Part shown: piece after piece, positions 1,079-44,970 of the stretch
Layout of the letters: each line of letters opens with the position of its first letter
Numbering within the stretch: position 1 is the stretch's first letter
Notes under the pieces: generated by a model
Databases searched by the model: none
What the model was told of the DNA's origin: nothing
The model's input: only the letters and a program-made list of their open reading frames with translations
NCBI GenBank assembly: GCA_034435995.1
Contig: DAOTWC010000081.1
Coordinates: forward strand, 12,795 to 76,794
Reading direction: 5' to 3'
DNA: 64,000 nucleotides
Origin: Anaerolineae bacterium
GTDB lineage: Bacteria; Chloroflexota; Anaerolineae; Aggregatilineales; Phototrophicaceae
Program-made: the position numbers and the translations under genes

Positions 1079-1088
1079 GGTGCGCCCC

Positions 1089-2786
1089 ATGAACCACCTG
1101 CGCCGCCTGCTCGACACCCTATTCCCCGTTGAACGCTACGGCCCAACCGACCGCGACCGCGCGCGCGCTGTCTACACCATCAGCGTTCTCATGCTGGCCA
1201 GCGTCACCGCCCTGGTGCTGATGGCGCTGGCCGCGCCCAACACTCCCGAGCTGCTGGGCGTCTTTGCCTCCGCGCCGCTGCTGACTGCCACGATGGCGCT
1301 GTTCTACGCCAGCCTGGTGGCTGCCGTCGTTCTCGTGCGCCGGGGGCGGCTGCGCTGGGGCGCGGCCATCGTGATCCTGCTGTGGGCCTTCACCATGCTT
1401 CTGCCCGGCGCGCTCAACGGCCTGAGCAACCTGTTTCACGGCCAGCTTGTCGCCATCACCGTGCTGCTGCCAGCGCTGCTGCTGCGGCGGGCCGGCCTGC
1501 TGCTTGGCACGGGGATAGCGGCGGCCACTGTTTTTGCTGTTTACGCTGGCAGCTCCGATCAACTGGGTTTGATCATCCCCAGCAACCTGGTCAGCATTGG
1601 TATGACGGCTGCGCTTGCCTACTCGCTGCTGCGCCTGTCGTCGCTGGGCCGCGAGGAAGGCCTCAACCAGGCGCTGGCCGAGCGCCTCAAGCTGGCCGAG
1701 CTGACCGCCGAGATCGCCCAGCGCATCTCCAGCCGCAGCGCCCTGGCCGACGTGCTCAGCGAAACGGTGGAGGACATCGTCGCCAACTACCCTGACATCT
1801 ACCACGCGCAGATTTTCCTGGTGGACAGCGTCGGTCTGCGCGCCCGGCTGGCCGCCAGCACTGGCCCAGTGGGCGGCGAACTGCTGGCGCGCGGCCACAG
1901 CCTAGAGGTAGGCAGCCGCAGCGTCATCGGCCAGGTGACCGGCCAGGGGCGCGTCGTGGTGGCCCGCGCCGGCGGGCAGGATGCCACCGTCCACCGCCGC
2001 AACGAGTACCTGCCGGAAACCCGCGTCGAGGCGGCTTTCCCGCTGCGCAGCGGCGGCCGCGTGATCGGCGCGCTGGATTTGCAGAGCAAGCTGGACGACG
2101 CCTTCCCAGAGCGCGACCTGCTGGTGTTCCAGACGCTGGCTGACCAGATCGCCATCGCCATTGACAACGCCCGCCTGTTCGAGGAAGCCCAGCGCAGCCT
2201 GGCCGAAAACCGCGCGCTGCTGGCCCAGAACGAGCGCGCGCTGCGCGATGTCGAGCGCTACGCTGCCCGCCTCGCCGGGCAGGCCTGGAGCCAGTTCCTC
2301 GACGGGCGGCCGTCTGCCGCCGGCCTCAGCCTGGACCTGGCCCGCGGCACGGCCAGCGATCAGGACGCCTGGCTGCCTGTGCTGGAGCGCGCCTTGGAAT
2401 CCGGCCAGGTGGAGCAGGAGCGCGACAACGGCCACCTGCAGGTGGCCGTGCCGCTGCGCGTGCGCGGCGCTGCGCTGGGCGCGATGGCCTTCCAGGTGCC
2501 GGGGCTGGAGGCGCTGGCGCCGGAGGACCTCGCCCTGGCGCAGACCGTCGGCGATCGGCTGGGCCTGGCGCTGGAGAACGCCCGTCTGTTCGACGAAAGC
2601 CAGCGCGCCGCCCAGCGGCAGGCCTTCATCAACGAGATCAGCGCGCAGCTTCAAACCAGCACCAACGTGGAGGCGACGCTGCGCGCGGCCGCCCACAGCC
2701 TGCGCGATGTGCTGGGCGCGGGCCGCGTGACGATCCGCCTGGGCCAACCGCCTGGCGCTGACACCAGAAAGGACGGTGGCGCATGA
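1089..2786 (+). CDS. Membrane-anchored GAF-repeat sensor protein without recognisable output domain
   Basis: ATG at 1089 has GAGG 8 nt upstream; GTG at 1080 from the ORF track is an alternative start. The N-terminal ~170 aa are strongly hydrophobic with several TM-like stretches. A full GAF follows (YHAQIFLVD...GSRSVIGQV...RVIGALDLQS...IAIAIDNARLFEE), then a half-GAF and the conserved tail. Confidence 0.8.
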   Translation: MNHLRRLLDTLFPVERYGPTDRDRARAVYTISVLMLASVTALVLMALAAPNTPELLGVFASAPLLTATMALFYASLVAAVVLVRRGRLRWGAAIVILLWAFTMLLPGALNGLSNLFHGQLVAITVLLPALLLRRAGLLLGTGIAAATVFAVYAGSSDQLGLIIPSNLVSIGMTAALAYSLLRLSSLGREEGLNQALAERLKLAELTAEIAQRISSRSALADVLSETVEDIVANYPDIYHAQIFLVDSVGLRARLAASTGPVGGELLARGHSLEVGSRSVIGQVTGQGRVVVARAGGQDATVHRRNEYLPETRVEAAFPLRSGGRVIGALDLQSKLDDAFPERDLLVFQTLADQIAIAIDNARLFEEAQRSLAENRALLAQNERALRDVERYAARLAGQAWSQFLDGRPSAAGLSLDLARGTASDQDAWLPVLERALESGQVEQERDNGHLQVAVPLRVRGAALGAMAFQVPGLEALAPEDLALAQTVGDRLGLALENARLFDESQRAAQRQAFINEISAQLQTSTNVEATLRAAAHSLRDVLGAGRVTIRLGQPPGADTRKDGGA

Positions 2787-4450
2787 TCGCCTGGCTGCGA
2801 AACCTGCTGGCACAGGTTGAAATCCCTGAAAACGATCCCCTAGCGCGGCTGCGGCAGCGCTTTCTGCAGGGCGCAGCCGGGGCAGCCGCCCTGACGGCGC
2901 TTGTCGGCATACTCGCTCAGCTGGCCGTCCGTCCCACAGCGCCCGCCATGTTATCCGGCGCTGGCGTGTTCCTGGTGGGCATCACGCTGTTGGCGCTGAC
3001 GCAGCAGCGGCGGCTGCGCATCGCCGCGCCGCTGCTCTTGGTCACGCTGATTGCCGCAACGTTCGCCGCCTCAGCCGTGCGCTACGCGTTCTTGCTCTAT
3101 CTGCTGCTTGGCACGCTGGCGCTGTTCAGCGCGGCCACCCTGCTGCCGCGTTGGGCGTTCATCCTGACCAACGCAGTCATTTTCGCGCGCGGCTTCACCC
3201 TGCTGGGCACAGCGCTGGCCAGCGTGCCGCCCGACGCGCCCGAAGCGTTTTTTATCGAAACTGTGACCAATGCTGCGCTGATTCTATCGGTTCTGCTGAT
3301 CGTAAGCGCGGTTTCCCGTTACATCGTCGAGCAGCTGCAAGGCGCAGTCCAGCAGACACAGCGCGCCGCCGACCGGCTGGCCGCCACCGCGCAGATCGCC
3401 CAGATCACGGCCGCCACGCTCGACCTGACCGAGCTGTTCAACCGCTCGGTCGAGCTGATCCGCGACTACTTCGGCTTCTACCACGTGCAGGTGTTCATGC
3501 TGGACGCGCGCGGCGAGTTCGCGGCGCTGGCCGCCAGCACCGGCGACGTCGGCCAGCAGCTCATGGCGCGCCAGCACCGGCTTCCAGTGGGGTCTACCAG
3601 CGTGATCGGGCGCGTGACCTACTTCGGCGAGCCAGTTATCGCCGCCGACACCGACCTCGACCCGCTGCATCGCCCCAACGACCTGCTGCCCGACACGCGC
3701 AGTGAAATGGCCGTGCCGATTTTCGACGGCGAGCGCGTCATCGGCGCGCTGGACGCGCAGAGCACCGTGCCGCGCGCCTTCACGCCGCTGGATGCGCAGG
3801 TGCTGCAAACACTGGCCGACCTGCTGGCAGTGGCCATCCGCAACGCGCGCCTGTTCGAGGAGAAAACGCGCGCCCTGGCCGAACAGGAGCGGCTTGTCCA
3901 GCAGGCGGACATCAACGTGCGCGAAATCCAGCGCCTGAACCAGCAGCTCACCCGCATCGGCTGGTCGCAGTTCCTGGAGCAGCGGCCGGACACCGCCGGC
4001 GTGACCCTGCGCGACGGCATCGTGCGCGCTGAGGCCGAGTGGAGCCAGCCGCTGATCGCGGCGGCCCGCACCGCGCAGCCGGTGGCCGACCGCGCTGGCG
4101 GCAGCCCCGGCTCAGTGGCTGTGCCCGTGACGCTGCGCGGCGAGGTGATCGGCGCAATCGAGGTTGAGCCAGGCAGTCTTATGCCTCCCGCCGACGTGGT
4201 CGCTGTCTTGGAGGCCGTGGCGCAGCGCCTGGCCCTCAGCCTAGACAACGCCCGCCTGTTTGAAGAAGCCAACCTGGCCACCGCCCAGGAGCAGCGCATC
4301 AACGCCATCGCCACGCAGTACCAATCGGTGAACAGCGTGGACGACCTGCTGCGCGTCACACTGACCGAGCTGAGCGAGACGCTGGGCGCGCGGCGCGGCG
4401 CGATCCGCCTGGGCAGCGTTGGCTCCACTAACGGAGACACGGCCCAATGA
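2783..4450 (+). CDS. Membrane-anchored GAF-repeat sensor protein without recognisable output domain
   Basis: ATGA start/stop overlap with the upstream gene (2783-2786). Hydrophobic N-terminus, then a GAF (YHVQVFMLD...GSTSVIGRV...RVIGALDAQS...LAVAIRNARLFEE), then WSQFL, a half-GAF and the conserved tail. Confidence 0.8.
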   Translation: MIAWLRNLLAQVEIPENDPLARLRQRFLQGAAGAAALTALVGILAQLAVRPTAPAMLSGAGVFLVGITLLALTQQRRLRIAAPLLLVTLIAATFAASAVRYAFLLYLLLGTLALFSAATLLPRWAFILTNAVIFARGFTLLGTALASVPPDAPEAFFIETVTNAALILSVLLIVSAVSRYIVEQLQGAVQQTQRAADRLAATAQIAQITAATLDLTELFNRSVELIRDYFGFYHVQVFMLDARGEFAALAASTGDVGQQLMARQHRLPVGSTSVIGRVTYFGEPVIAADTDLDPLHRPNDLLPDTRSEMAVPIFDGERVIGALDAQSTVPRAFTPLDAQVLQTLADLLAVAIRNARLFEEKTRALAEQERLVQQADINVREIQRLNQQLTRIGWSQFLEQRPDTAGVTLRDGIVRAEAEWSQPLIAAARTAQPVADRAGGSPGSVAVPVTLRGEVIGAIEVEPGSLMPPADVVAVLEAVAQRLALSLDNARLFEEANLATAQEQRINAIATQYQSVNSVDDLLRVTLTELSETLGARRGAIRLGSVGSTNGDTAQ

Positions 4451-6123
4451 ACATTGTTCGCCGCTGGACTCGGCGCATTCACGTCACCTATCCCAACCCG
4501 CTTGACCGGGGCAGTGCGCTGGCCCTGATGTGGATCAACCTGGCGGCGGGGGCCGTCTGGCTGCCGCTCGCTGTCTTTTACCTGGTGCCGCGGTTTAGCG
4601 CTGGCGCTGACCGCAGCCTGCTGGCTGCCCTGGCGATTGTTGGCACGCCGATTGCGGTGTACGCCGTCCATTCGCTGGTGCTGAACAACCGGCTGGAGTG
4701 GGCGCAGCGGCTGGCGGTGGCCGGGCTGTTGGGCGTTACGCTTGGCCCACTGATGATCAACCAAGGGCAGGAAACGCCGCTGGCGCTGCTGCTGCTGCCG
4801 GTGGCGGCCGCCGGCGTGATGCGCCGGCGGGCCGAACTGCTGCTGGTGACGCTGTTGGTGACGGCTGGCGCGGCGCTTGGCACGCTCGGCGGCCCGCTGG
4901 CCAGCCGCGCCCAGCCCGATCCAGCAGCCGTAGAGGAGCTGGCAGCGGCGCTGGCCAGCGCCTGGCTGGTCGCCCTGCTGGCCAGCGCGTTCAAAGGGCA
5001 CGAGGGCGGCGTGGTGACGGGCGCGCTGCGCGCCAGCGGGCAGACCGCTCTGCTGGGCGAGCTGAGCGACCGCCTGAACACCGCCGACGACGAAAACGCT
5101 GTGTTGGTGGCCGTCGCCGAAACGATCACCGACAAAATGCTGTACACCGCCTGCCATTTCTATCTGTTCGACGGCCAGAACCGGCTCAACCGGCACGTGC
5201 GCACCGGCATGGGCACGCGCCACGCCGTCAGCCCAGCGCGTTTTGAGGGCGAGCGCGAGAACGCCATCGGCCAGGCGCTGCACGCCCGCGAGACGGTGGT
5301 CGTCTCTGCCGCCGAGCCGCTGGCGCGGCGCAGCCACCTGCTGTCCTCGGCGCGCTGTGGGGCCGCTGTGCCGCTGCTGGCCGGCGAGCGCGTGCTGGGC
5401 GCGCTGGACGTGCAGAGCAGCCAAGCCGATCCGCCGCCGTTCGAGGGCCTGAACCTGGCCCTGCTGGAGCTGACCGCGCGCATGGCGGCGGGGGCGCTGG
5501 CGCGCGTGCGCGAGGCTGCGCTGCTGCAGCGCACACTGGCCGAGCAGGAGGACACACTGGCGGGCCTGCGCGCCGAAGTGGGCCAACTGCGCCAGCGCGC
5601 CCTGGCCGGCGGCGGCGATTGGGCCAGCTACATCCAAGGGCGCGGCCAGAGCGCGTTCGGTTTCGACCTGCGGCGCGAGGGCATGACGATCACGCCCGCC
5701 GCCGACCTGCCCGACACGCTGCGCCCCGCGCTGGCGCGCGGCGAGCCGGTGGTGCTCACCCAGGGCAGCGTGCAGGTTGTCAATGTGCCGATCCGCCTGC
5801 GCGACGAGGTGCTGGGCGCGATGGCCTTCACCCTGCCGCCCGGCCGCCAGGCGACTGAGCGCCAGATGGACACCGTGCGGGCGGTGGCCGAGCGTCTGGC
5901 GCTGGCGCTGGAAAACGTCCGGCTGATCGAGCAGAGCCAAGCCCAGGCCACCCGCGAACGGCGCGCCAGTGAGGTCTCCAACCTGCTGATCGGCCAGCAG
6001 GACGTGAACGCAGTGCTGAAGCTTGCCGCTGAGCGCTTTAATGAGGCGCTGGGCGCGGTCTACACCCACATCTATCTGGAACCGGCTGCCAGCCCGGCGC
6101 CAGACGAGGAGGCGGCCCGATGA
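4447..6123 (+). CDS. Membrane-anchored GAF-repeat protein, the divergent paralog of the array
   Basis: ATGA overlap at 4447-4450. Hydrophobic N-terminal third. Divergent GAF (CHFYLFDGQN...ERVLGALDVQSS), a half-GAF (VNVPIRLRDEVLGAMAF...LALALENVRLIEQSQ) and the conserved tail. Confidence 0.75.
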   Translation: MNIVRRWTRRIHVTYPNPLDRGSALALMWINLAAGAVWLPLAVFYLVPRFSAGADRSLLAALAIVGTPIAVYAVHSLVLNNRLEWAQRLAVAGLLGVTLGPLMINQGQETPLALLLLPVAAAGVMRRRAELLLVTLLVTAGAALGTLGGPLASRAQPDPAAVEELAAALASAWLVALLASAFKGHEGGVVTGALRASGQTALLGELSDRLNTADDENAVLVAVAETITDKMLYTACHFYLFDGQNRLNRHVRTGMGTRHAVSPARFEGERENAIGQALHARETVVVSAAEPLARRSHLLSSARCGAAVPLLAGERVLGALDVQSSQADPPPFEGLNLALLELTARMAAGALARVREAALLQRTLAEQEDTLAGLRAEVGQLRQRALAGGGDWASYIQGRGQSAFGFDLRREGMTITPAADLPDTLRPALARGEPVVLTQGSVQVVNVPIRLRDEVLGAMAFTLPPGRQATERQMDTVRAVAERLALALENVRLIEQSQAQATRERRASEVSNLLIGQQDVNAVLKLAAERFNEALGAVYTHIYLEPAASPAPDEEAAR

Positions 6124-8410
6124 CCCGTCACTGGAATATCCTGGCCTGGCCTATCTGGGCCAAGCTGCTGGCTGGATTCGTCGTTGCGGTGGTTGTGCCG
6201 GTGGTGCTGCTGCTGGTGCTGGTCGTGCGCGGCATCCGCGAAATTGACCTCGCCAACGCCGAATCGGCCGTTGCCCAGTTCGGCGCGCAGCAGGCTCAGG
6301 CGCTGGCCAGCGCGTTTGCCCTGGCCAGCAACAGCCTGAACGACTACATCCAGACGCCTACCTTCCGCTCGCTGCTGCTGGAGCTGATCCCAGCCGGGCG
6401 CGCTGGCGACGCCGTCGTTGACCCGCTCGATCAGGCGCGCCTGGTGGGCAACATGCAGGACGGCCTGCTCAACCGGTCGGCCAGCACGTTCACGCGGCTG
6501 ACCCTGCTCAACTCCAGCGGGCAGGTGATGGCGCAGGCCGCGCCGGGGCGCAGCATCGAGGTGACGATGGGCGAGAGCATGGCGCTCAGCGCGGCCTACC
6601 GCGCCGCCACGCTGGCCTACACGCGCGGCCAGACGCAGGCCGTCGTCGTGAGCGAGGAGGGCGGCCAGCCGGTGATCGAGATCGTCAACGTGCTGTTCCG
6701 CTACAACGTCGTCGAGTTCCGCCAGTTCCAACTGCCCATCGCCTACCTGGTGGCGCGGCTGAACCCGGCCTTCACCGTTTACGACAAGCTGCCGCCTGTT
6801 ACTGCGCCTGATCAGCCGCGCGCCTACCTGGTGTCGCGCGGTGGCGTGGTCATCGCCGACGGCGCGGCCCGCTCTGGCGCGACCGACCTGGCCACCTCGG
6901 AGCTGGTGCGCGCCGCGCTCGCCGGCGCGCCGCAGGTGGCGCGGGCCAGCGAAGGCACAGCCGATGAGGTAGTGCGCTACGCCGTCCTCATCGAAAACAC
7001 GCCGCTCGTTCTCATCAGCGAGCGCGCGACCAACTCCGTCGCCAGCCAGATGCACGGCTACCTGCTGACGCGCGGCTTCCCGCTGCTGATGGGCCTCACG
7101 CTGCTGGCCCTGCTGCTGGCGCTACTGTTCAACCAGTTCCTCACGCCGCCGCTGCGCCGCCTGACGCAGGCCATGCAGACCACAGGCCGCGTCAGCTTCG
7201 ACAGCCCTGTGCCCGACGTTAACCGCGGCGACGAAATCGGCGACCTGGCGCGCGCCTTTGCCGACATGCGCCGCGAAATCGCCGAGCTGGTGCACGGCCT
7301 AACGCTGAGCGTCTCCGAGCGCGAACGCGACATCAGCGCCACCCAGGACATCAGCCGCTTCGCCGCCGCTCAGCGCGATCTGCAGCACTTGATTGACCGC
7401 GTGGTTAACCTGATCGTGGATCGCTTCCCCAACATTTACCACGCCCAGATTTTCCTGCTCGACGACGAAGGCCGCTACGCTGTGCTGCGCGCCAGCACCG
7501 GCGAGGCTGGTGCACAGCTGCTGGCGCGCGGCCACCGCCTGGAGGTGGGCAGCCGCAGCGTTATCGGCCAGGTGACCAGCTTGGGGCAGACGATAGTGGC
7601 CCGCGACATCGGCGCCAGCGACATTCACCGCCGCAACGAATTCCTGCCCGACACGCGCGCCGAGCTGGCCGTCCCCCTGCGCGTCGGCAACCGCGTGATC
7701 GGCGCGCTGGACGTGCAGAGCTTCCTGCGCGACACCTTCAGCGCCGACCAGACGCGCGTGCTGCAGACCATGGCGGATCAGATCGCCATCGCCATCGAGA
7801 ACGCGCGCCTCTACCAGGAAGCGCAGCGCAGCGCCAGCGACGAGGCGCGCCGCCAGCGCGCGCTCACCCGCTACGCCTGGCGCCAGTACCTCTACGACGA
7901 GCGCGCCGCCCGCCTGGAGAGCGCAGCCGGCCGCGCGTCCAGCCTGGAAGCCCTCGACGACCTGCGCCGCGCCGCCGCCGCGCGCGGCGAGGCAGTGGTA
8001 GGCCAGCCCACGCCGCACCACACCGTCGCCTTCGCCGTGCCCATTCGCCTGCGCGGCGAGACGCTGGGCGCGGTGGCCTGGGAGGTGGCCCAGGCCGGCT
8101 TCGACCGCAACAAGGTGCTGCTGGCCCAAGAGCTGACCGACCGCCTCGCCGTCAGCCTGGAGAACGCCCGCCTGTTCACCCAGAGCCAGCGCGCTGCCGA
8201 GCGCGAGCGCTTGGTCAACGAGATCAGCGCGCGCCTGACCGGCCAAACCGACATTGACCACATCCTGCGCACTGCAGTGCGCGAGGTAGGCCAGGCGCTG
8301 CGCGCGCCGCAGGTGACTATCAGCCTGCGCCCCGCCCCCAACAACAGCCCAGAGAGCGCCAACGGCCGCTCCAACGGCCAAACGGGCGAACACACGGAGG
8401 CCAGTGACGT

Positions 8411-8414
<4 letters not shown>
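6120..8414 (+). CDS. Transmembrane sensor protein: extracytoplasmic domain + HAMP + GAF repeats, no kinase domain
   Basis: ATGA overlap at 6120-6123. TM1 is ILAWPIWAKLLAGFVVAVVVPVVLLLVLVV, followed by a ~290-aa non-hydrophobic segment and TM2 (FPLLMGLTLLALLLALLF). A HAMP-like segment follows (PPLRRLTQAMQ...GDEIGDLARAFADMRREI). Then a GAF (YHAQIFLLDDEG...GSRSVIGQV...RVIGALDVQS...IAIAIENARLYQE), a half-GAF and the conserved tail. Confidence 0.8.
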
Positions 8415-16603
<8,189 letters not shown>

Positions 16604-16613
16604 ATCTCACAAA

Positions 16614-16682
16614 CCTCGCCGCGGCCCTCTCCACTGGCGAGGGGCTTTCCCCGTGTCCGCGTGGAGAGGGTGGGCGGTGAGG
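16614..16682. repeat. REP-like nested palindromic element / possible terminator after the kinase gene
   Basis: Three nested stems. CCTCGCCGC (16614-16622) pairs with GCGGTGAGG (16674-16682) with one G-T pair. CCCTCTCCA (16625-16633) pairs with TGGAGAGGG (16662-16670). The inner stem is GGGGctttCCCC (16641-16652). It shares the TGGAGAGGG...GGTGAGG core with the element at 35633-35698. Confidence 0.45.
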
Positions 16683-16719
16683 CCGGCATGGATCGCAATT
16701 CGACAACCACGAGGACGTT

Positions 16720-18390
16720 TTGACCAGCACAGCCAAACACATCGAACTCGAATGCATCAACTGCCGCGCGCGCGTCCCGCTGGACAAGAACGTCTCCGGC
16801 TGCCCGCGCTGCGGCGAGAACATCTTAGAGGCGCGCTACGACCTCAGCGGCCTGGACCCGGCCGCCTGGATGGAGGCGCTGCGGGCGCGGCCAGTCGGCC
16901 TGTGGCGCTATCACGAAGTGCTGCCGATTTACGACACGGGGAACATCGTCTCGTTGGGCGAGGGCGGCACACCGCTGGTGAAATCGCGCGCGCTGGCCGC
17001 CAGCCTGGGCCTGAAGCACCTGTACATCAAGGACGAGCGCCAGATGCCCACCGGCAGCTTCAAGGACCGGCAGGCCACCGTCGCCATCTCCGCCCTGCGC
17101 GAGATGGGCGTGGACGAGCTGGTGGTGGCCAGCACCGGCAACGTGGCCATCGCCTACGCCGCCTACTGCGCCCGCGCCGGCATCAAGCTGTGGGCCTTCT
17201 TCCCCAGCCTGGCCCCCGCCGACAAGATGCGCGAGGCCGCGCTCTACGGCGCAGAGGTGATGAAGATCACCGGCACATACGACCAGACCAAAGAGCTGGC
17301 CGCGCGCTTCGCCCGCACCAAGGGCGTCTTTCTGGACCGGGGCATCAAGAGCGTGGCGGCTATCGAGGCGATGAAGACGATGGCCTATGAGATCGCCGAG
17401 CAGCTCGGTCACGAGCTGGAGGGCGGCAGGCGCTGGCGCGCGCCGGACTGGTTCCTGCAGGGCGTCAGCGGGGGCATGGGGCCGATCGGCGTGGGCAAGG
17501 GCTTCCGCGAGATGCTCGACTTCGGCATGGTGGACAGCATGCCGAAGATGGGCATCGTCCAGTCCGCCGGCTGCGCGCCGATGGTGGAGGCGTGGCAGCG
17601 CGGCCAGCGCATCGCCACGCCCATCGAACGGCCGGAGACGATCATCGCCACGCTGGCCACCGGCAACCCCGGCCGCGCCTACGAGCTGCTCTACGACTAT
17701 GTGCAGGCCTACGGCGGCTATTTCGTCAGCGCCAACGACCAGGAGGCCTTCAGCGCCATCCGCATCCTGGCGCGCAACGACGGCATGTCCGTTGAGCCGG
17801 CGGTGGGCGTGACGTTCGCCGGGCTGTTCAAGATGGTGCAGAAAGGCATCATCAAGCCGGACGACGTGGTGGTGGTCAACGGCTCTGGCCACACGATGCC
17901 GGTGGAAACGCAGATTCTCGATGAACAGTGGCAGCGCTCGATTGACCTGTCGGTGCGCTCAGCCGCGCCGGTGCTGCCGGAGGAGGGCCTGCTGGCGGCG
18001 CTGGAGCAGATGGACGCGCTGGTGCGGCGCGTCGTGCTGGTGGAGGACAACGCCGACGCCGCCCGCCTCATCAGCCGCATCCTGCAGGCGCGCGGCAGCT
18101 GCGACGTGCGCGTGGCCGCTAACGGCGCGGATGGCTTGGCGCTCATCCGCGAGACGCGCCCGGACCTGGTCATCACCGACCTGATGATGCCTGGCGTAGA
18201 CGGTTTCACGCTGATTGACGCCATGAAGGCCGACTCAACCATGAACCACATTCCCATCATCGTAGTGACGGCCAAGGAGCTGACCGCCAAAGAGCGCGCG
18301 CGCCTCGGTGGGCAGATCAACCTGCTGCTGCAGAAAGGCTCGTTCATTGACGAGGACTTTGTGGCCAGCTTGATCAGCGAGCTGAGCTGA
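16720..18390 (+). CDS. Threonine-synthase-like PLP enzyme with N-terminal Cys4 zinc ribbon, fused to a C-terminal response-regulator receiver domain
   Basis: TTG start with GAGGA 4 nt upstream. Zinc ribbon is CINCRARVPLDKNVSGCPRCG. The PLP-lysine motif TGSFKDRQ (~nt 17051-17074) and the fold-type II pattern STGNVAIAYAAY match the ThrC family. The last ~125 aa form an intact receiver (VVLVEDN...DLVITDLMMPGVDGF...IIVVTAKE). Confidence 0.85.
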   Translation: MTSTAKHIELECINCRARVPLDKNVSGCPRCGENILEARYDLSGLDPAAWMEALRARPVGLWRYHEVLPIYDTGNIVSLGEGGTPLVKSRALAASLGLKHLYIKDERQMPTGSFKDRQATVAISALREMGVDELVVASTGNVAIAYAAYCARAGIKLWAFFPSLAPADKMREAALYGAEVMKITGTYDQTKELAARFARTKGVFLDRGIKSVAAIEAMKTMAYEIAEQLGHELEGGRRWRAPDWFLQGVSGGMGPIGVGKGFREMLDFGMVDSMPKMGIVQSAGCAPMVEAWQRGQRIATPIERPETIIATLATGNPGRAYELLYDYVQAYGGYFVSANDQEAFSAIRILARNDGMSVEPAVGVTFAGLFKMVQKGIIKPDDVVVVNGSGHTMPVETQILDEQWQRSIDLSVRSAAPVLPEEGLLAALEQMDALVRRVVLVEDNADAARLISRILQARGSCDVRVAANGADGLALIRETRPDLVITDLMMPGVDGFTLIDAMKADSTMNHIPIIVVTAKELTAKERARLGGQINLLLQKGSFIDEDFVASLISELS

Positions 18391-18403: not shown

Positions 18404-19570
18404 GTGCGCGCCCGCGCGTCTGTTTACCTGCCAGCCTTGGCGGCGGCTGTCCTCACGCCGCTGTTCCTGGGCGTTGCGCCGGTTTTCGGCAAGCTGGCCA
18501 TCACCGCCGGCGCGGCTCCGTTCGGCGTGGCGGCGCTGCGCACGGCGGGTGCGGTGCTGCTGCTGTGGGCGGTGTACCTGGCGCTGTTCCGGCGCTTTAT
18601 TTACATCTACCCGGCCGGCTTGCTCGGCTGCGTCGTGATCGGCGTGGTGAACGGCATTGGCTCGCTGTTTTACTACGGCGGGCTGGGTCTGCTGGACGCC
18701 TCGCTGACGCAGCTGCTCAACGGCACGTACCTAGTGTTCGCTGTGCTGCTCACGCGCATTGGCGGCGAGCGCCTGGACCGCCGGATGCTGCTGCGCGTGG
18801 CGCTGGCGCTGGCCGCGCTGGTGCTGCTTACCGGCTTCGGCAGCAGACCGGTGGACTGGCTGGGCGTGGGCCTGATGCTGGGCAGCGCCATCACCTTCGC
18901 CGGCACGGTCATCCTCAGCCAGTACGTGCTGCTGGAGATGCCCGCGCCCACCATGACACTCTACTCGCTCAGCACAATGGCGGTGCTGGTGCTGATGGTG
19001 TGGCTGGCGGCGGGCGCGCCGGGGCTGGCCGCCGCCGCCGGCCCGGCGCTGACGCCGATCGCGCTGCTGGCGGTGACGACGGCGCTGTCGCGGCTGGCGA
19101 TGTACAGCGGCATCAAAATCCTGGGCGGCATGCAGACGGCTGTCCTGGCGGTGGCCGAGATCGGCGTGGCACTGGTGCTGGCCTTTCTACTGCTGGGCGA
19201 GCGCCTGACGGCAATGCAGGTGGTGGGCGTAGGGCTGCTTACGGCCAGCCTGCTGCTGGTGCGCGCCCGCGACCTGGCCTCGGCCCGCTTCAACCCCGGC
19301 GCGCTGTTGGTGCAGAACATGGCCGCCCAACAGTTCCAGTGGATCGCCTTTCACCGCGCTTTCGCCCGCGCCCCGCTGGACGCCGATGACGACGTGATGG
19401 CCAAAGTGACCACGCGCGAGATGCGCGCCATCCAGCGCATGATGGGCGTGGACACCGGCCCGCTCAATCCCTTCCCCATCGTCAACCCGACGGCGCACTA
19501 CAGCGTGGACCTGCGCGCTTTCCTGGACGAAACGCAGCCGCCAGACGACGAAAAACCGCCGTCGCCCTAG
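18404..19570 (+). CDS. EamA/DMT-superfamily transporter with ~90-aa soluble C-terminal tail
   Basis: GTG start 13 nt after the upstream stop, with GAGG upstream. About ten hydrophobic helices form two five-helix halves, typical of the drug/metabolite transporter (EamA) fold. The C-terminal tail is hydrophilic. Confidence 0.75.
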   Translation: MRARASVYLPALAAAVLTPLFLGVAPVFGKLAITAGAAPFGVAALRTAGAVLLLWAVYLALFRRFIYIYPAGLLGCVVIGVVNGIGSLFYYGGLGLLDASLTQLLNGTYLVFAVLLTRIGGERLDRRMLLRVALALAALVLLTGFGSRPVDWLGVGLMLGSAITFAGTVILSQYVLLEMPAPTMTLYSLSTMAVLVLMVWLAAGAPGLAAAAGPALTPIALLAVTTALSRLAMYSGIKILGGMQTAVLAVAEIGVALVLAFLLLGERLTAMQVVGVGLLTASLLLVRARDLASARFNPGALLVQNMAAQQFQWIAFHRAFARAPLDADDDVMAKVTTREMRAIQRMMGVDTGPLNPFPIVNPTAHYSVDLRAFLDETQPPDDEKPPSP

Positions 19571-19593: not shown

Positions 19594-20685
19594 ATGAATG
19601 CGCACGCTGCATCGCCCACCCTGATCTGTGCCGACTGCGGGCAGGCCGCCGGGCCGCTGGACTGGCACTGCGACGGCCACCCGCTGGAGATCGCCGGCGC
19701 GCCGCCGTTCGACGCCGCCGCCATTGACGCGGGCGCGTGGAGCATGTGGCGCTACGCCGCCGCGCTGCCGGTGGCGCGGCGCGTCTCGCTGGGCGAGGGC
19801 CTGACGCCGCTCGTCCCAGTGCAGGCCGGCGGGATGCGCTTTCACGCCAAGCTGGAGTACCTCAACCCGACCGGCTCGTACAAGGACCGCGGCACGGCTG
19901 CGCTGCTCAGCCACATGCTGGCGCACGGCGTGGCGGCCGTCGTCGAGGACTCATCGGGCAACGCGGGCGCATCGCTGGCGGCCTACTGCGCCGCCGCTGG
20001 CGTGCGGGCGCGGGTGTACGTCCCGGCGGGCGCGCCGGCGGGCAAGAAGCGCCTGATCGAGCGCTTTGGCGCGGCGCTGGTCGAAATCCCCGGCCCGCGC
20101 GCCGCCGCCGCTGACGCCGTGCGCCAGGCCGCCCAAAACACCCCCTACGCCAGCCACGCCTGGAGTCCCTATTTCATTGCCGGGCAGATGACGTGCGCCT
20201 GGGAAATCTGGGAGCAGTTGGGGCGGCGCGCGCCGGACGCGATCGTGTGCCCAGTGGGCTACGGCGGGCTGCTGCTGGGGCTGGCGCGCGGCTTCCGCGC
20301 CCTGCTGGACGCGGGGTTGATCGAGCGACTGCCGCGCCTGTACGCGGCCCAATCAGCCGCCTGCGACCCGCTGGTGCGCGCGTGGGAGCGCGGCGGGCCG
20401 GTGGAGGCGGTCGAGCAGGGCCAGACGGTGGCCGACGGCATCGCGGTGACGCTGCCGCAGCGCGCCGCCGAGCTGCTGGCCGCGCTGCGCGACAGCGGCG
20501 GCGGCGCGCTGCGCGTCTCTGATGAGGCGGCGCTGGCGGCCCAGGCGGCGCTGGCCCGGCGCGGTCTGCTGGTGGAGCCAACCGGCGCGGTGGGCGCAGC
20601 AGCGCTGGCGGACGCCCGGCGGCTGGCCGGCGCGAACGCGGCGTTCGTTGTGCCGCTGACCGGCAGCGGACTCAAGGCGCTGTAG
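19594..20685 (+). CDS. Threonine synthase-like PLP-dependent enzyme (short form)
   Basis: N-terminal Cys-rich segment (LICADCGQAAGPLDWHCDGH). WRY...SLGEGLTPLV. PLP-lysine motif TGSYKDRG (~nt 19870-19893). SSGNAGASLAAY. Confidence 0.8.
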   Translation: MNAHAASPTLICADCGQAAGPLDWHCDGHPLEIAGAPPFDAAAIDAGAWSMWRYAAALPVARRVSLGEGLTPLVPVQAGGMRFHAKLEYLNPTGSYKDRGTAALLSHMLAHGVAAVVEDSSGNAGASLAAYCAAAGVRARVYVPAGAPAGKKRLIERFGAALVEIPGPRAAAADAVRQAAQNTPYASHAWSPYFIAGQMTCAWEIWEQLGRRAPDAIVCPVGYGGLLLGLARGFRALLDAGLIERLPRLYAAQSAACDPLVRAWERGGPVEAVEQGQTVADGIAVTLPQRAAELLAALRDSGGGALRVSDEAALAAQAALARRGLLVEPTGAVGAAALADARRLAGANAAFVVPLTGSGLKAL

Positions 20686-20768
20686 CCGGCTGACCTAACG
20701 AAAACAGCCCTTTGTGTTACAATCGCCGCTAACCGCAGAGGGCATAGGGCAAGTGGGGGGCAGTGCAG

Positions 20769-21104
20769 ATGCCCGACTATAACCTGAGCGAGAAGGAGCA
20801 CCGTCTGGCGCTGCGGGCGGCGCTGGTGATTGACGCCGTGCGCGAGGCGCTGGACGCCCTCACCGGCTTGGCGCTGCGCTACGCCGAGCGCGGCCTGGAT
20901 CAGGAGGCCGCTAAACTGCTGACGTTCGTGCTGCGCCACCCGGACGTGCGTTACGACACCTTCGACTACGCCGAAGACCTGTTTCTCGATCTCGAAGCGC
21001 GCGTGTGCCCGCGGGTGATCGAGGACGCGCGCGCGTTCGCGCTGGGCAAGTCGCTTAAGAGCGTGGCCGATTACGTCTTTGCGCTGGCCGACGACGATGA
21101 GTAG
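20769..21104 (+). CDS. Hypothetical small acidic protein
   Basis: ATG at 20769 has a GGGGGG run 8 nt upstream; GTG at 20763 is an alternative start. The composition is protein-like with no recognisable motif. Confidence 0.5.
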   Translation: MPDYNLSEKEHRLALRAALVIDAVREALDALTGLALRYAERGLDQEAAKLLTFVLRHPDVRYDTFDYAEDLFLDLEARVCPRVIEDARAFALGKSLKSVADYVFALADDDE

Positions 21105-26294: not shown

Positions 26295-26523
26295 TTAACG
26301 GCCGCGCATTTCGAATCTAACGCCGCCGGCGGATCTGTAAGCATCTTGCAAGGTAAGCCAGCCTAGAATTCTTACAAATTACGCAATTTCTCAATGCAGC
26401 GCTGCGGGCACTTGGCTGCTTCCGGGCGCTTGCCGCGTGATGCATATTGTCTCAACAGCGCAGCCAATCATGTCACGAACCCCACCACCACGGCAGGTGC
26501 TGGGGACAGCGGGGAGAACAAAG

Positions 26524-29500
26524 ATGGTCGGGGACAGATTAAAAGGCTTTCTTGTCGTCCTGGTGCTTCTAGCGCTGCTGGCCCCGCTGGGCCTGGGCGG
26601 CCTAACGGCACAAGCCCAGGTATTCGCGCCCACGCCGATCCTGGTAGTAGTCAACGACAGCGCGCCCTACCAGTTTGGCCGCTACCTGGGGGAAATTCTC
26701 ACGGCTGAGGGCATTACCAGCTTTGTGACGGTTCAGATCGGCGCGCTGACCGCGGCCGATCTAACGAACCGCGACCTGGTTATCGTGGCCGAGACGCCGC
26801 TGACGCCTGGCCAGGCTGCGCTCCTCACAGACTATTACAACGCCGGCGGGCGGCTGCTGGCGATGCGGCCCGACGCGCAGATCGCCGGGCTGTTCGGCCT
26901 GGGCGCTGCCGTGGGGACGCAGGAGCGCGCCTACCTGCGCATCCTTAACGGCGCAGTTGTCAACGGTGAAGCGCCCGGCCAGGGCATCACTGGCCAGACG
27001 ATTCAGTATCACGGCACGGCCACGCTGCACAACACCCTGGGCGGCGCTGTCACTGTTGCCGAGCTGTACAGCAGCGCCACCGCGCCCACCGGCTTCCCAG
27101 CAGTGGTGGCCACCAGCGATGGCCGCGCCGCCGCCTTCACCTACGATCTAGCGCGCAGCGTTGTGCTGATGCGCCAAGGCAACCCAGCCAACGCCAACGT
27201 GGACGTTGACGGCGACGGCGTCTTCCGCACGCGCGACCTGTATCTGAGCGCCGACGGCAACCACTGGGTGGACCGCACCCGCCTGCCCATCGTGCAGGCT
27301 GACGAGCAGCAGCGCCTGTTCGCGCGGCTGGTGCGCCAGGCCGTCGAGCAGGTGCGCCCGCTGCCGCGCCTGTGGTATTTCCCCGGCACAGCCCGCACCC
27401 TGCTTATCGCCACCAGCGACTCGCACGCCAACCCGGCGAGCTACCACGTCGAGCTGCAGAACGCGGTAGCTGATTACGGCGGCACGCTCACAACCTATCT
27501 CTCGATTGGCGCGCCGGACAACGCAACGATTCAAAGCTGGCGGGCGCAGGGGCACGAGTTCGGCATGCACCCGTATGTCTACCGCGCTGATCCGTTCCCG
27601 CCGTTCAACGTAGAAAACATTGTAGAGGGGTACTACGTCGCCAACTACTGGTTCGAGAACACGTATACCAGCCCGAAATCGCGCACGGTGCGCGCGCACG
27701 ATATCGGCTGGCTGGGCTGGACCGACGCCGCTGAGCTGGGGCTGCAGTACAACATCAACCTCAACCTAGACCTGTTCACTGTTGGCCGCTGGCTGCAGCT
27801 CCCTGATGGGAGCTGGCCGCACGGCTACATGAACGGCAGCGGCCAGCCGATGCGCATGGTGCGCGCCGACGGCGTGATTCTGAATTATTACCAGCAGGCG
27901 ATGCCGCTGATTGACATCCAGCTTCTGTGCCAGCTTGCATACGAGGGCCTCAACAACACGACTGCCATGGCCGTCTCGCGCGAGCTGATTGACAACAGCC
28001 AGGCCGGCGGCTATTCCGCCATTGGGGCGTTCTTCCAGGTGGACTGTGTTCAATATGGCACCACGCCCTGGGTGCGCGACACGCTGGCCTACGCCCAGAG
28101 CGTGGGCGCGCCGATCTGGAACGCCGACCGCTTCCTGGCGTTCACCGAGACGCGCTACGACAGCGAATACACCGACATCGTCTGGAACGGGGCGACCAGC
28201 ACGCTCACGTTCAACTTGATCGCGCCCGCCAGCGGTTTCGACCTGAGCACGATCATACCAGCCAGCTACAACGGCAGCGGTTTGTCGTCGGTGCTGGTGG
28301 ACGGCAGTCCTGTGGCGTTCAGCGTGCAGCCGATCAAGGGCCGGAACGAGGCTTTTGTTACCGTTCAGGCAGGCAGCCGCAGCTTTGTGGCCGTTTACGA
28401 CGGCCCGGTGAGCACACCGACGCCAACCTGGACGCCGTCGGCCACGCCCACCAACACCCCAACCCCCACCCCGACAGCGACAGAAGGCCCGTCGCCAACG
28501 CCGACTGACACGCCGACCAACACCCCGACTCCTTCGCCAACGCCGGCGCCGCTGCCTGGGACGTACACACAGACGCTGCAGGTGAACGCGGGCAGCGACG
28601 ACGTCAACGAAGACGGCGCTGACCTGGAGGTGAACAACGCCACGATCTGGGTGGGCAGCGGCGAGAGCGCCAGCGCCAGCTACCTGGGGCTGCGGTTTAA
28701 CAACGTGCCAGCCCCGGCCGGCGCGACGATTGACAGCGCCTACCTGCAGTTCTACTCGCCCACCGGCGGCTGGACGGTCGTTGCCGCGGAGATCGCGGCG
28801 GAAGCCGTTGACAGCAGCGTCACGTTCACGCTGGCCAACCGGCCGTCGCAGCGGCCGCTGACCGCCGCGCGCGTGCAGCACAACTCGAACGCGCAGTGGC
28901 TGGCGGGCAATTGGTACAACTTCGACGAAATGCGCACCGTGGTGCAGGAAGTCGTTGACCGGCCCGGCTGGCAGGTTGGCAACAGCCTGTCCATCATCCT
29001 GCGCGGCACAGCCGGCGCGTGGGCGCGCAAGTTCGCGGCGGCCTTCGAGAGCAGCCCGGTTAACGCGGCGCGGCTGGTGATCACCTACACTATCCCCGGC
29101 CCGACGGCCACGCCAACCGACCTGCCGACCAATACCCCGACTCCAACGCCAACGCTGACGCCGACCGACGGCCCATCGCCGACGTCAACCGACACGCCAA
29201 GCGTTCCGACCAACACGCCCACGCCGACGCCCACGCCGACGCCGGAGTCGCTGACGACGCTGTTCGGGCACAACGGGCGGTTCTTCCACGGGAACATGTT
29301 CAACGTGACGGTGACGAACCCGCTGGAGATCACCAGCTTCGACGTGAACATTGGGGCGGGGAACACGACGGTGAGCGTGTACTACCGGATTGGCGGCTAC
29401 GCGGGGGTGGAGGCGAACCCGGCGGCGTGGACGCTGATGGGGTCGGCGGCGGTGGTGGGCGCTGGCCCGAACAACCGGACGGCTTTAGCAGTGAGCAGCC

Positions 29501-30399
29501 CGGTGCTGCAGCCGGGGACGTACGGGTTCTACGTGACGGTGGACCCGGCGGGGCCGGTGGACATGTACTACACGTCGGGGAGCGGGACGTTTGCCAACGC
29601 CGACCTGGCGATCACGACGGGGATCGGCGTGGGCGGGCTGTTCGGCGACCCGGCGGCGTGCGCGGCGCGGAACTTCAGCAACAACCCGTGCATCTTCCTG
29701 GATCGGACGTGGAACGGGACGATCTACTACCGGACGATCGCGCCGACGGCGACGCCGACGGCCACAGCCACTGCTACGCCGACTGATACACCAACAAACA
29801 CGCCGACGCCGACGGCCACGGCCACTGACGTCCCAACCAACACACCGATCCCGACCGAGACGCCGACTGATACGCCAACAAACACGCCAACGCCGACAGC
29901 CACCGACATTCCGACCGAGACGCCGACGGCCACAGCCACCGCTACGCCGACTGATACACCAACAAACACGCCGACGCCGACGGCCACGGCCACCGACGTC
30001 CCGACCAACACACCGATCCCGACCGAGACGCCGACGGCCACAGCCACCGCTACGCCGACTAATACGCCAACAAACACGCCGACGCCGACACCAACGAACA
30101 CGCCGGCCCCCAACAGAGCGCCCTATGTGATCCCGAATCAAACGACAGTGACGGCGGTCAACGGCCAGATGGTCACTAACACCGGCCAGGTGATTGACCT
30201 TGACGGCGACTTTGTGACGCTGACGGCCTCGGTGGGCACAGTCGTTAACAACGGCAACGGCACTTGGACGTGGACGTTCACGCCGGCCAACGGCCCGGCT
30301 GACAGCCAGACGGTGATCATCACCGGCAGCGACGGGCGCGGCGGCATCGGCCAGGGGCTGTTCTCGCTGACCGTCGTCTGGCCGACGCCGACGCCGTAA
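26524..30399 (+). CDS. Large secreted multidomain protein with Thr/Pro-rich linkers and C-terminal cadherin/Ig-like domain
   Basis: ATG at 26524 has GGGGAG 8 nt upstream, and the ORF-track start at 26437 is less likely. Signal/anchor sequence is [28 protein letters not shown]. Globular segments are separated by PTPT/TPTN low-complexity linkers at about nt 28400-28560, 29095-29250 and 29740-30110. The terminal ~90 aa look like a cadherin-like beta domain ([18 protein letters not shown]...). Confidence 0.8.
29761..30090 (+). repeat. Near-identical 105-nt direct repeats inside the linker-coding region
   Basis: Copy 1 (29761-29865) and copy 2 (29929-30033) differ at about 3 positions. A partial third copy starts at 30037. 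A 63-nt related segment separates copies 1 and 2. The repeats encode [36 protein letters not shown]. Confidence 0.85.
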
Positions 30400-43484: not shown

Positions 43485-43886
43485 TTAATCCTTGCGCAGC
43501 CGGCGCAGTCCCTGGAAGTGTGGATCGCCCTGGATGGCCTTCCAGCGGGCCGCCCCGCCGTCGGTGTGCCACTCGACGACGTGCATGCCGTCGGGGTTTT
43601 CGTAGGCGAAGGCCGGGCGCATCATGAGCATCTGGCGCACAACGCCGATGAACTCCTTGCTCTCCTGGCCCAACGTGAGCGTGAACCACTGGCCCGGCTG
43701 CCATTCGAACACGACTGGGCTGCCGCGCCACGTGCCCTCCATCCGGATTGGCGGCGTGGGGCGGGTGCAAACCATGTAGAGCGACTGCAGGCGGTTGCGC
43801 CACAGGGTGTGGTTCACCCGCTCCTCGATGTAATAGGGGCGCGGTTCAGGGGTGGTGTAGAACCAGGTGCGCGCGTCGGTGGCCAT
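43485..43886 (-). CDS. Hypothetical protein (Trp/aromatic-rich, no recognised motif)
   Basis: 133-aa ORF with protein-like composition, divergently oriented to the TIR gene. Confidence 0.5.
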   Translation of the reverse strand: MATDARTWFYTTPEPRPYYIEERVNHTLWRNRLQSLYMVCTRPTPPIRMEGTWRGSPVVFEWQPGQWFTLTLGQESKEFIGVVRQMLMMRPAFAYENPDGMHVVEWHTDGGAARWKAIQGDPHFQGLRRLRKD

Positions 43887-44052
43887 CGGCTGGTATCTCT
43901 CCGGTCAGGGTGGGTGTCTCAAACAGCGCGTAGTGTACCCTAAAAGCGGCGCGCGCTCTAGATTCGACGCGCCAGGGCGCGGGTGGTTTTCGCCTTTAGC
44001 GCAGCGGTGTTATGATACGCTAAGAGCCAGCGCACAGCGGGAAGCCAGACCG

Positions 44053-44970
44053 ATGACCGAGCAGTCCGGATACGTTTTCATCAGCTACAGCCACCACGAC
44101 CGCGAGATGGCCCAGTACATCAACCAGGGGCTGCGCGCGGCCGGCTTCCAGACGTGGTTCGACCAGGAACGCCTGAGGCCGCCGGCCAAGTTCCCGCGCG
44201 CGATCGAGCGCGCCATCGAGGGCTGCGGCGCGTTCGTGGTGGTGATGTCGAAGCACGCGCGCGACAGCGACTGGGTGGAGAACGAAACGCTGTTCGCGCA
44301 GGACCGCGACAAGCCGATCTTCACGGCGTTGATTGACGACACGCGGCGGCCGATCTACCTGATGAACATCCACTACGAAGACTTCCGGCACGACCGCGAC
44401 GCTGCGCTGGCGCGCCTGGTCGAGGCGCTGCGGGCGACGGCCTTTGCCGCGCCCCAGGCCGCAGCCGCGGCCGCTGCGCTGCCCGCCAGCCGCCTGCGCC
44501 CTCAGTTCGGGGCCGACGAGTTCCTAGCCTATCTGCAGCAGGGGCCGGATGGCGCGGCCGCCGCGGCTGTCGCCGGAGAGCTGGTCGCGTGGGCGCGCCA
44601 GCACGCCGACGCGGTGGATTTCCGCGGCAGCGACCTGCCGGTGTTGCACGCGCGCGTGTCGGTGGCCGGGGGCGAGGTGGCGCTGTTCTCGGTGTGGGCG
44701 CACAGCCAGCGCCCCACTGTCGAAGTTCCGCTGCAGTACTTAAGCGCCGCGCCGCCGTTCGACCAGCGCGAGCAGCGCCTGGCGGTGCTGGAGCAGCTCA
44801 ACGCGCTGCTGCCGGAGGGCGAGCGCTTTGCCCCCGACCGCGCCGACAAGCGCCCAGGGCTGGCGCTGGCCGGGGCGCTGGTTGACGCCGGCCGCCGAGC
44901 GGCGTTTCTGGCGCTGTTGGCGGAGATGGCGGCGGCGCTGCGCCGGGCCGATCAGGACGGCGGCGCGTAG
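44053..44970 (+). CDS. TIR-domain protein with uncharacterised C-terminal domain
   Basis: ATG at 44053. The N-terminal ~130 aa match the bacterial TIR pattern: YVFISYSHHD, ...IERAIEGCGAFVVVMSKHARDSDWVENE, including the conserved Trp-x-x-Glu catalytic-type motif. The C-terminal ~170 aa are Ala-rich with no motif I recognise. Confidence 0.7.
   Translation: MTEQSGYVFISYSHHDREMAQYINQGLRAAGFQTWFDQERLRPPAKFPRAIERAIEGCGAFVVVMSKHARDSDWVENETLFAQDRDKPIFTALIDDTRRPIYLMNIHYEDFRHDRDAALARLVEALRATAFAAPQAAAAAAALPASRLRPQFGADEFLAYLQQGPDGAAAAAVAGELVAWARQHADAVDFRGSDLPVLHARVSVAGGEVALFSVWAHSQRPTVEVPLQYLSAAPPFDQREQRLAVLEQLNALLPEGERFAPDRADKRPGLALAGALVDAGRRAAFLALLAEMAAALRRADQDGGA

Follow-up and report, generated by a model that had tools for sequence, protein, structure and literature searches.

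The outputs known to be under the control of two-component receivers include DNA binding, second-messenger enzymes and chemotaxis proteins, and in the enzymatic response regulators (the methylesterase CheB, the diguanylate cyclases PleD/WspR, RpfG HD-GYP and PP2C-type proteins) receiver and catalytic domain are carried on one polypeptide. Threonine synthase (ThrC; EC 4.2.3.1), an enzyme dependent on pyridoxal 5′-phosphate (PLP), has been solved from T. thermophilus (1UIM/1V7C), M. tuberculosis (2D1F), A. aeolicus (2ZSJ), B. subtilis (6CGQ) and A. thaliana (1E5X/2C2B), and ThrC homologues with other chemistries, which are often mis-annotated as 'threonine synthase', include the thiocarboxylate-dependent homocysteine synthase MetM (10.1101/2024.10.14.618325) and a cyanobacterial deaminase-type ThrC lineage (PMC12172450). 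Here we describe a gene that joins a ThrC-like PLP domain to a CheY-like receiver, located on 64,000 nt of an Anaerolineae bacterium (contig DAOTWC010000081.1, positions 12,795 to 76,794 of the forward strand; this whole stretch is referred to as the window). In silico analysis established that the fusion of PLP enzyme and receiver is real, ancient and conserved, and the protein represents a response regulator with an enzymatic output, in which the output is unusual, the domain order is reversed and the enzyme part belongs to an uncharacterised ThrC-like clade. On balance we favour the interpretation that its effector, a PLP enzyme of ThrC fold, is a specialised ThrC-family paralogue controlled by the receiver.

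A PLP enzyme fused in frame to a receiver

The fusion gene and its parts occupy the following positions of the window:

16720..18390, + strand: receiver-fused ThrC-like gene (zinc ribbon, ThrC-like PLP domain, linker and receiver), a single open reading frame (ORF) of 556 amino acids (aa)
16753..16812, + strand: N-terminal four-cysteine zinc ribbon (C12, C15, C28, C31), from the sequence and a weak Pfam DUF7129 match
16948..17880, + strand: fold-type II PLP domain of the ThrC family, residues 77-387, from Pfam, alignment, AlphaFold2 (AF2) and Foldseek
17062-17064, + strand: PLP lysine K115 (in TGSFKDRQ), from alignment to five solved ThrCs
17926..18015, + strand: interdomain linker, residues 403-432, with low AF2 confidence and a conserved sequence motif
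18016..18387, + strand: CheY-like receiver, residues 433-556, from Pfam, AF2 and residue conservation
18178-18180, + strand: phospho-acceptor D487 (in LVITDLMMPG), from receiver alignment

Translation starts at a TTG codon, with GAGGA located 4 nt 5′ of it, and the ORF continues for 556 codons with no internal stop. An earlier reading made from the letters of this DNA (hereafter the sequence-only reading) had described a PLP enzyme that runs without a stop into a receiver, and it was correct on this point, as it was in naming the zinc ribbon and the PLP lysine. The zinc ribbon follows the pattern C12-x2-C15...C28-x2-C31, with a weak Pfam zinc-ribbon match at residues 8-34, and the Pfam pair which that reading had expected was recovered, PALP covering residues 77-387 (E 1.9e-72) and Response_reg residues 438-528 (E 4.4e-19; 69.1 bits against a gathering score of 30.2). 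In the receiver, the acidic pair E442/D443, the phospho-acceptor D487 and T517 (in VVTAKE) are all present as had been proposed, but the lysine of VVTAKE (K519) had wrongly been taken for the receiver lysine, the conserved residue being K539 in LLQKGS at the end of β5. By alignment, the receiver was shown to possess every residue for Asp phosphorylation.

A genome scan with clade-specific peptide patterns over species-level genomes matched at least 600 stretches, of which at least 582 were confirmed, and the loci used for the synteny and conservation counts below are the best 80 of these confirmed matches; residue conservation was scored over the protein of the window (the target) and 79 fused orthologues (n=80). 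All of the best 80 loci belong to Chloroflexota (Anaerolineae, Aggregatilineales, Ardenticatenaceae, Caldilinea aerophila, Thermanaerothrix), and in 79/80 of these GTDB loci the receiver is in the same ORF, with lengths of 545-595 aa, the sole exception being interrupted by a contig end. No frameshift was found, and gene calls on three independent assemblies give the identical fusion protein. PALP plus Response_reg (552-575 aa) is shared by all of more than 120 protein clusters with 73-92% identity, and an exhaustive search of 50%-identity representatives recovered fused proteins down to 43-52% identity. The family is lineage-wide in Anaerolineae and is uniformly mis- or under-annotated, the database names being 'threonine synthase' or 'pyridoxal-phosphate dependent enzyme'.

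Across the 80 aligned proteins, which span ~51-81% identity in the PLP part, the four zinc-ribbon cysteines, K115, D443, D487 and K539 are each conserved in 80/80 sequences, while the T517 position is occupied by T (72) or S (8) and the E442 position by E (69) or D (11). Neither a loss of the receiver Asp, Thr or Lys nor a missing catalytic lysine, both of which the sequence-only reading had named as grounds for abandoning it, was therefore encountered. Among the distant fused representatives, P0121 (715 aa) and P0122 (708 aa), at 46-47% identity, carry two receivers after the ThrC-like domain. In another representative, P0140 (492 aa, apparently cut at both ends), one ORF runs from a HATPase_c domain (6-117) into a ThrC-like PALP domain from the clade of the target; this could be a direct fusion of kinase and enzyme or else an artefact of gene calling or of a frameshift on a short contig.

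Structure prediction was performed with AF2 on an alignment of 149 diverse sequences, as 18 close homologues gave a predicted local distance difference test score (pLDDT) of only 57. The resulting model (pLDDT 83; predicted template modelling score, pTM, 0.70) has a PLP body at ~90, a receiver at 70-90 that forms a (βα)5 fold of five strand-helix units over residues 437-555, and a linker (403-432) below 50. Despite this low confidence, a linker motif, PxEGLLxALEQ, which covers part of the linker, is kept across homologues.

The PLP domain and its relation to threonine synthase

The sequence-only reading had called the enzyme part a complete ThrC-type enzyme, and with respect to the fold this description stands. 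The best Foldseek matches of the model are solved ThrCs (M. tuberculosis, A. aeolicus, B. subtilis, T. thermophilus, Arabidopsis), with target-normalised TM-scores of 0.82-0.87 at 25-32% identity, and the cysteate synthase CapA2 ranks as more distant. K115 aligns with Thermus K61 and S138-T139-G140-N141 with Thermus S84-N87, in all cases in 80/80 sequences, and the PLP lysine, the carboxylate loop STGN, the Gly-rich cofactor-phosphate loop and an S/T389-G-H391 motif are strictly conserved.

The description fails for the motifs which all five solved ThrCs share near the substrate-phosphate site. These enzymes have 'ASTGNT' and '(V/L)NS(V/L)N(P/S)xR(I/L)EGQKT' in common, and the four bacterial ones 'PVGNAGN'; the counterparts in the target are 'ASTGNV', 'LDRGIKSVAAIEAMKT' and 'GVSGGMG', and SFKDRQ, LDRGIKSVAAIEAMKT and VSGGMGPIG are clade-specific motifs of the PLP domain. 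Thermus T88, N154, S155, R160 and N188 correspond to V142, R207, G208, A214 and S250 of the target, the latter being fixed across the 80 sequences. As the residues taken to surround the substrate phosphate in the solved ThrCs are all replaced, the reaction of the fused enzyme is not assignable as that of ThrC. The curated ThrC cutoffs were likewise all missed, with bit scores of 295.3 against 303 for NF006050, 161.3 against 167.1 for TIGR00260 and 189.3 against 421 for NF004170.

Other known identities found no support. The target scores 124.8 against a cutoff of 324.9 for cysteate synthase (TIGR03844), and its match to PDB 9K3C has an E value of 2e-19 as compared to 1e-46 for ThrC; the best score for a serine/threonine dehydratase (IlvA/TdcB) is 72.3 against 421 (NF006390); and with regard to a MetM-type identity by context, no MetO/ThiS-like sulfur-carrier gene flanks the target.

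In a table of 150 representatives, the group to which the target belongs is marked by SFKDRQ, xDRGxK...E[AS]MKT, QxVSGGxGPxG and TG[DN]PG, the last with a deletion of ~5 residues, while the canonical zinc-ribbon ThrCs P0155, P0174, P0204 and P0249 retain the ThrC motifs 'NSxNPxRxEGQKT' and 'VGNAGN'. The group is monophyletic in a neighbour-joining tree (without bootstrap support), within which the fused proteins would form an inner subclade, with the complete unfused members P0126, P0274 and P0345 nested near the target's subgroup; this placement of fused and unfused proteins is tentative because the tree is of that kind. The PLP domain has the ThrC fold and, judged by its motifs, is not a canonical ThrC, belonging instead to a separate ThrC-like clade, and the fused enzyme is probably not a housekeeping threonine synthase. 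From the fold, a β- or γ-replacement or an elimination on an amino-acid-like substrate is expected. A canonical thrC motif found no match in 1.37 Mb of Anaerolineae DNA, a sample far too small to conclude absence.

Regulatory domains are also found in other zinc-ribbon ThrC-like clades, where a C-terminal LeuA allosteric/dimerisation domain was confirmed for P0162; P0168, P0185, P0195, P0201 and P0246 resemble this protein (~611-622 aa), the LeuA domain having been scanned in P0162 only. A further zinc-ribbon ThrC-like protein, P0198, carries a C-terminal PadR helix-turn-helix (HTH) domain. Fusion to a C-terminal regulatory domain seems to recur across the ThrC-like superfamily.

Genomic neighbourhood and proposed mode of action

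The genes flanking the fusion in the window are as follows:

1080..8414, + strand: four tandem membrane GAF proteins just upstream of the giant kinase, from Pfam and hydrophobic segments
8411..16603, + strand: giant hybrid histidine kinase of 2730 aa, the candidate phosphodonor, from Pfam and transmembrane (TM) prediction
16604..16719, + strand: intergenic region of 116 nt, from a scan
18404..19570, + strand: EamA/DMT-family transporter of 388 aa with ~9-10 TM segments, starting 13 nt after the fusion stop
19594..20685, + strand: second ThrC-like PALP paralogue of 363 aa, 34% identical to the target, from Pfam and pairwise identity

The sequence-only reading placed the fusion 116 nt downstream of a giant hybrid kinase, and this distance is right, with the kinase stop at 16603 and the fusion start at 16720; no consensus promoter or terminator was detected inside this 116-nt intergenic region. 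The kinase is ordered as TM, extracytoplasmic dCache-like region, TM, eight GAF domains, HisKA, HATPase_c and two receivers (REC), and its sensor part consists of TM 14-32, a dCache-like region of ~295 aa and TM 329-347. That reading further regarded the kinase as the obvious phosphodonor, a claim which synteny supports as far as it goes: in loci with enough flank among the best 80, which provide the denominators here, the fused gene has a kinase core ahead of it on the same strand, with less than 1.6 kb between them, in 58/67 cases. A REC-HisKA-HATPase kinase of ~410 aa lies directly downstream in 38/64 loci; it is absent from the window, where a search for an orthologue elsewhere also gave none. 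In 58/61 loci one or more kinases adjoin the fused gene, and in 50/64 an EamA transporter occurs at most 3 kb downstream. The second PALP gene is linked to the fusion in only 3/64 loci, and its linkage is thus not conserved. Neither hom nor thrB was present among the genes scanned, which cover about half of the window, or in the loci with inspected gene tables. Neighbours of aminoglycoside phosphotransferase (APH) fold in L006 and L094, considered as type-II homoserine kinases of a thrB-thrC operon, do not score as homoserine kinase.

Unfused members of the clade occur in several settings. P0274 and P0345 have as neighbours an SDF transporter, an amino-acid-binding protein of SBP_bac_3 type and a dCache signalling protein; P0273 adjoins an Orn/DAP decarboxylase within a glycan-biosynthesis cluster; and the context of P0271 is uninformative. 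In L090 and L091, which hold the closest complete unfused relatives of the target's subgroup, the dCache protein is of guanylate-cyclase type in one and a hybrid kinase in the other, and both neighbourhoods echo the enzyme, transporter and dCache theme of the fused loci. In L088 (8001-10717) and L089, an unfused clade member of 432 aa stands in a polysaccharide-biosynthesis cluster immediately before an Orn/DAP/Arg decarboxylase, with an AMP-binding enzyme, a carrier protein and an acetyltransferase nearby, a setting suggestive of a pathway to an unusual amino acid or amine decoration.

With respect to the remaining genes of the window, the four GAF genes have overlapping stop and start codons and encode paralogues of 568, 555, 558 and 764 aa, each with one GAF domain, the last also with HAMP; every protein has 3-6 hydrophobic segments, mostly N-terminal, and a C-terminal region of ~200 aa with no Pfam family match. 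A HAMP-GAF protein is also present upstream of the giant kinase in L004 and L005. The second PALP paralogue is of a different motif type (SYKDRG, SSGNAG, PYFIAGQMT) and falls below all ThrC cutoffs. On a 6.2-Mb Phototrophicaceae contig, this type is found together with the fusion at a distance of 3.8 Mb and outside any hom/thrB context, and there the orthologue (L093 8001-9570; L094) is directly followed by a gene for a stand-alone receiver of 139 aa, which indicates that the pairing of ThrC-like protein and receiver also exists as separate genes in the lineage. Downstream of the second PALP gene is a small acidic ORF (20763-21104, + strand; ~111-113 aa) that has no Pfam match and is called on both source contigs; it was rejected as a ThiS/MoaD/MetO-like carrier, as it has neither a Gly-Gly C-terminus nor a Pfam match. 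Beyond the second PALP gene, two glycosyltransferases and a phosphofructokinase are encoded on the other strand. Further along, 26437-30399 (+ strand) is an ORF of 1320 aa with no Pfam match, for which the source-contig callers give 952 and 1235 aa from ~26524, and 43867-44970 (+ strand) encodes a 367-aa protein with a TIR_2 domain (E 9e-25) and a weak Thoeris ThsB-like match, which may be a defence-related gene.

We propose that a neighbouring kinase phosphorylates D487, in the window presumably the 2730-aa hybrid kinase with its extracytoplasmic dCache sensor, which synteny suggests as the cognate partner of the receiver, and in most relatives possibly also the downstream REC-HisKA-HATPase kinase. 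The phosphorylated receiver would then act on the PLP enzyme, normally a dimer, to alter its activity or its oligomeric state, with coupling through the conserved, flexible 30-residue linker, so that catalysis by the fused enzyme would be under phosphorylation control, as the sequence-only reading had also supposed. A coupling of the reaction to EamA transport is probable, and either the substrate or the product would cross the membrane by this route. A more speculative extension, to which we assign a low probability, is a self-contained circuit in which the enzyme makes an unusual amino-acid-type molecule, EamA exports it, the dCache region senses this product or a related external amino acid, and the kinase phosphorylates the receiver of the synthase; it is put forward because the combination of ThrC-like enzyme, amino-acid transporter and dCache protein recurs around unfused members (L090, L091). 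If true, such a circuit would close a feedback directly on catalysis rather than on transcription, and would give filamentous Anaerolineae an autoinducer-like system that is new in both its chemical and its regulatory type.

Several points weigh against a specialised, receiver-controlled enzyme. The shortfall to NF006050 is small (8 bits) and a truncated C-terminal profile match may contribute to it, and the five Thermus residues replaced in the target are ones which we take to hold the phosphate of O-phosphohomoserine, a role reportedly described by Omi et al. 2003. The fused protein could still be the threonine synthase of its hosts. With regard to control, the giant kinase has two receivers of its own and no detected histidine phosphotransfer (HPt) domain, leaving the phosphoryl route ambiguous, and the receiver follows the enzyme, whereas most enzymatic response regulators have the opposite order. 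As the linker has a pLDDT below 50, AF2 predicts no confident docking of the receiver onto the enzyme.

That the protein is a genuine threonine synthase, converting O-phosphohomoserine to threonine under two-component phospho-control with EamA as an RhtA-like threonine/homoserine exporter, appears unlikely to us, though it retains appreciable weight. Plant ThrC, which is activated by S-adenosylmethionine via an extra regulatory region, would offer a parallel to such a throttling of flux. The best curated model for the target is NF006050 'threonine synthase' (295.3 bits, 8 below its cutoff), its top PDB matches by sequence and structure are all ThrCs, K115 and the STGN loop are conserved, and the public annotation is threonine synthase, while the small 1.37-Mb sample of Anaerolineae DNA yielded no canonical thrC motif and the second ThrC-like paralogue also fails all ThrC cutoffs. 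However, the positions that differ from 'NSxNPxRxEGQKT' and 'VGNAGN' are all fixed in the family, and the canonical zinc-ribbon ThrCs form a separate group. Moreover, none of the members examined has a hom/thrB neighbour, the APH-fold neighbours not being homoserine kinases, and the unfused members are located in a glycan cluster or beside amino-acid uptake genes and not in threonine operons; ThrC-like lineages with other activities are also documented (MetM, cysteate synthase and the deaminase-type cyanobacterial ThrC).

The PLP domain might instead act as a ligand sensor akin to GabR/MocR, its external aldimine with an amino acid gating the gain or loss of phosphate by the receiver, and the protein would then be a metabolite-gated sink or branch point in a relay. 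The fusion of other zinc-ribbon ThrC-like clades to PadR HTH or LeuA allosteric domains, the C-terminal position of the receiver, which resembles relay elements in hybrid kinases, the presence at the locus of many receivers and two kinases with no DNA-binding output, and an altered substrate site compatible with loss of the ancestral chemistry all fit such a role, which we nevertheless deem improbable, as the full catalytic apparatus (Lys, STGN, Gly-rich loop, S/T389-G-H391) is strictly conserved, metabolite flux offers the easier account of the tight linkage to a transporter, and unfused members in a biosynthetic glycan cluster beside a decarboxylase suggest real catalysis in the clade. Still less credible is a receiver that serves as a phosphorylation-independent structural or dimerisation module, with the kinase neighbours signalling to unlinked regulators. 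Atypical receivers that work without phosphorylation exist, and here the Pfam match spans only profile positions 1-88 of 111 and the aromatic switch position is Leu (L536); yet the five phospho-chemistry residues are retained in 80/80 sequences in spite of the divergence of the PLP part to ~51-81% identity, which would be unexpected in the absence of selection for phosphorylation, 58/61 loci have one or more adjacent kinases, and P0140 appears to fuse a kinase ATPase domain to the enzyme. An assembly or sequencing artefact, in which a ThrC-like gene and a gene for a single-domain response regulator were joined by a lost stop or a frameshift, had nothing in its favour and is refuted by the identical ORF on three assemblies, the in-frame fusion seen in 79/80 species-level genomes as well as hundreds of protein clusters, and the conservation of the linker.

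Comparison with known systems

Full-text literature searches, which covered few subscription journals, returned no paper on a fusion of ThrC or PALP to a receiver. With a receiver wired directly to a PLP amino-acid enzyme, phosphorelay control would reach amino-acid chemistry, primary or specialised, at the level of the protein itself, in an abundant but poorly studied group of sludge, sediments and soils. The distinct ThrC-like clade matters for metabolic reconstruction, as its genes may be wrongly counted as thrC, and the conserved module of kinase, enzyme and transporter represents a concrete, testable system.

As compared to the solved ThrCs, with which it has the fold, SFKDR and STGN in common, the target carries 'LDRGIKSVAAIEAMKT' and 'VSGGMGPIG' in place of 'NSxNPxRxEGQKT' and 'VGNAGN', has insertions at 231-240 and 290-297 and a deletion of ~5 residues before TGNPG, and adds an N-terminal zinc ribbon and a C-terminal receiver. 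Like MetM, cysteate synthase (CapA2, 9K3C) and the cyanobacterial deaminase-type ThrC, it is a divergent member of the ThrC family annotated as 'threonine synthase'; its clade has motifs and a context of its own, namely kinase and EamA, or SDF/SBP and a dCache protein. GabR/MocR proteins similarly join a PLP fold to a signal-transduction module, but these are of fold type I and carry an HTH, whereas the target is of fold type II, has a receiver and not a DNA-binding domain as its partner, and shows no sign of lost catalysis. In the Vibrio CqsA/CqsS system, a PLP-dependent autoinducer synthase is encoded beside a hybrid sensor kinase with an extracytoplasmic or membrane sensor; the likeness is confined to the circuit logic, as CqsA is of fold type I and is not itself a phospho-acceptor, and the target locus has a dedicated exporter-type gene in addition. 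It is with the enzymatic response regulators that the target shares its basic design of receiver and catalytic domain in one polypeptide, here encoded beside histidine kinases, and by their logic phosphorylation-dependent activation, relief of inhibition or dimerisation would be expected; it departs from them in having the receiver at the C-terminus rather than the N-terminus, and in that its output is a PLP amino-acid-metabolising enzyme and not a signalling enzyme.

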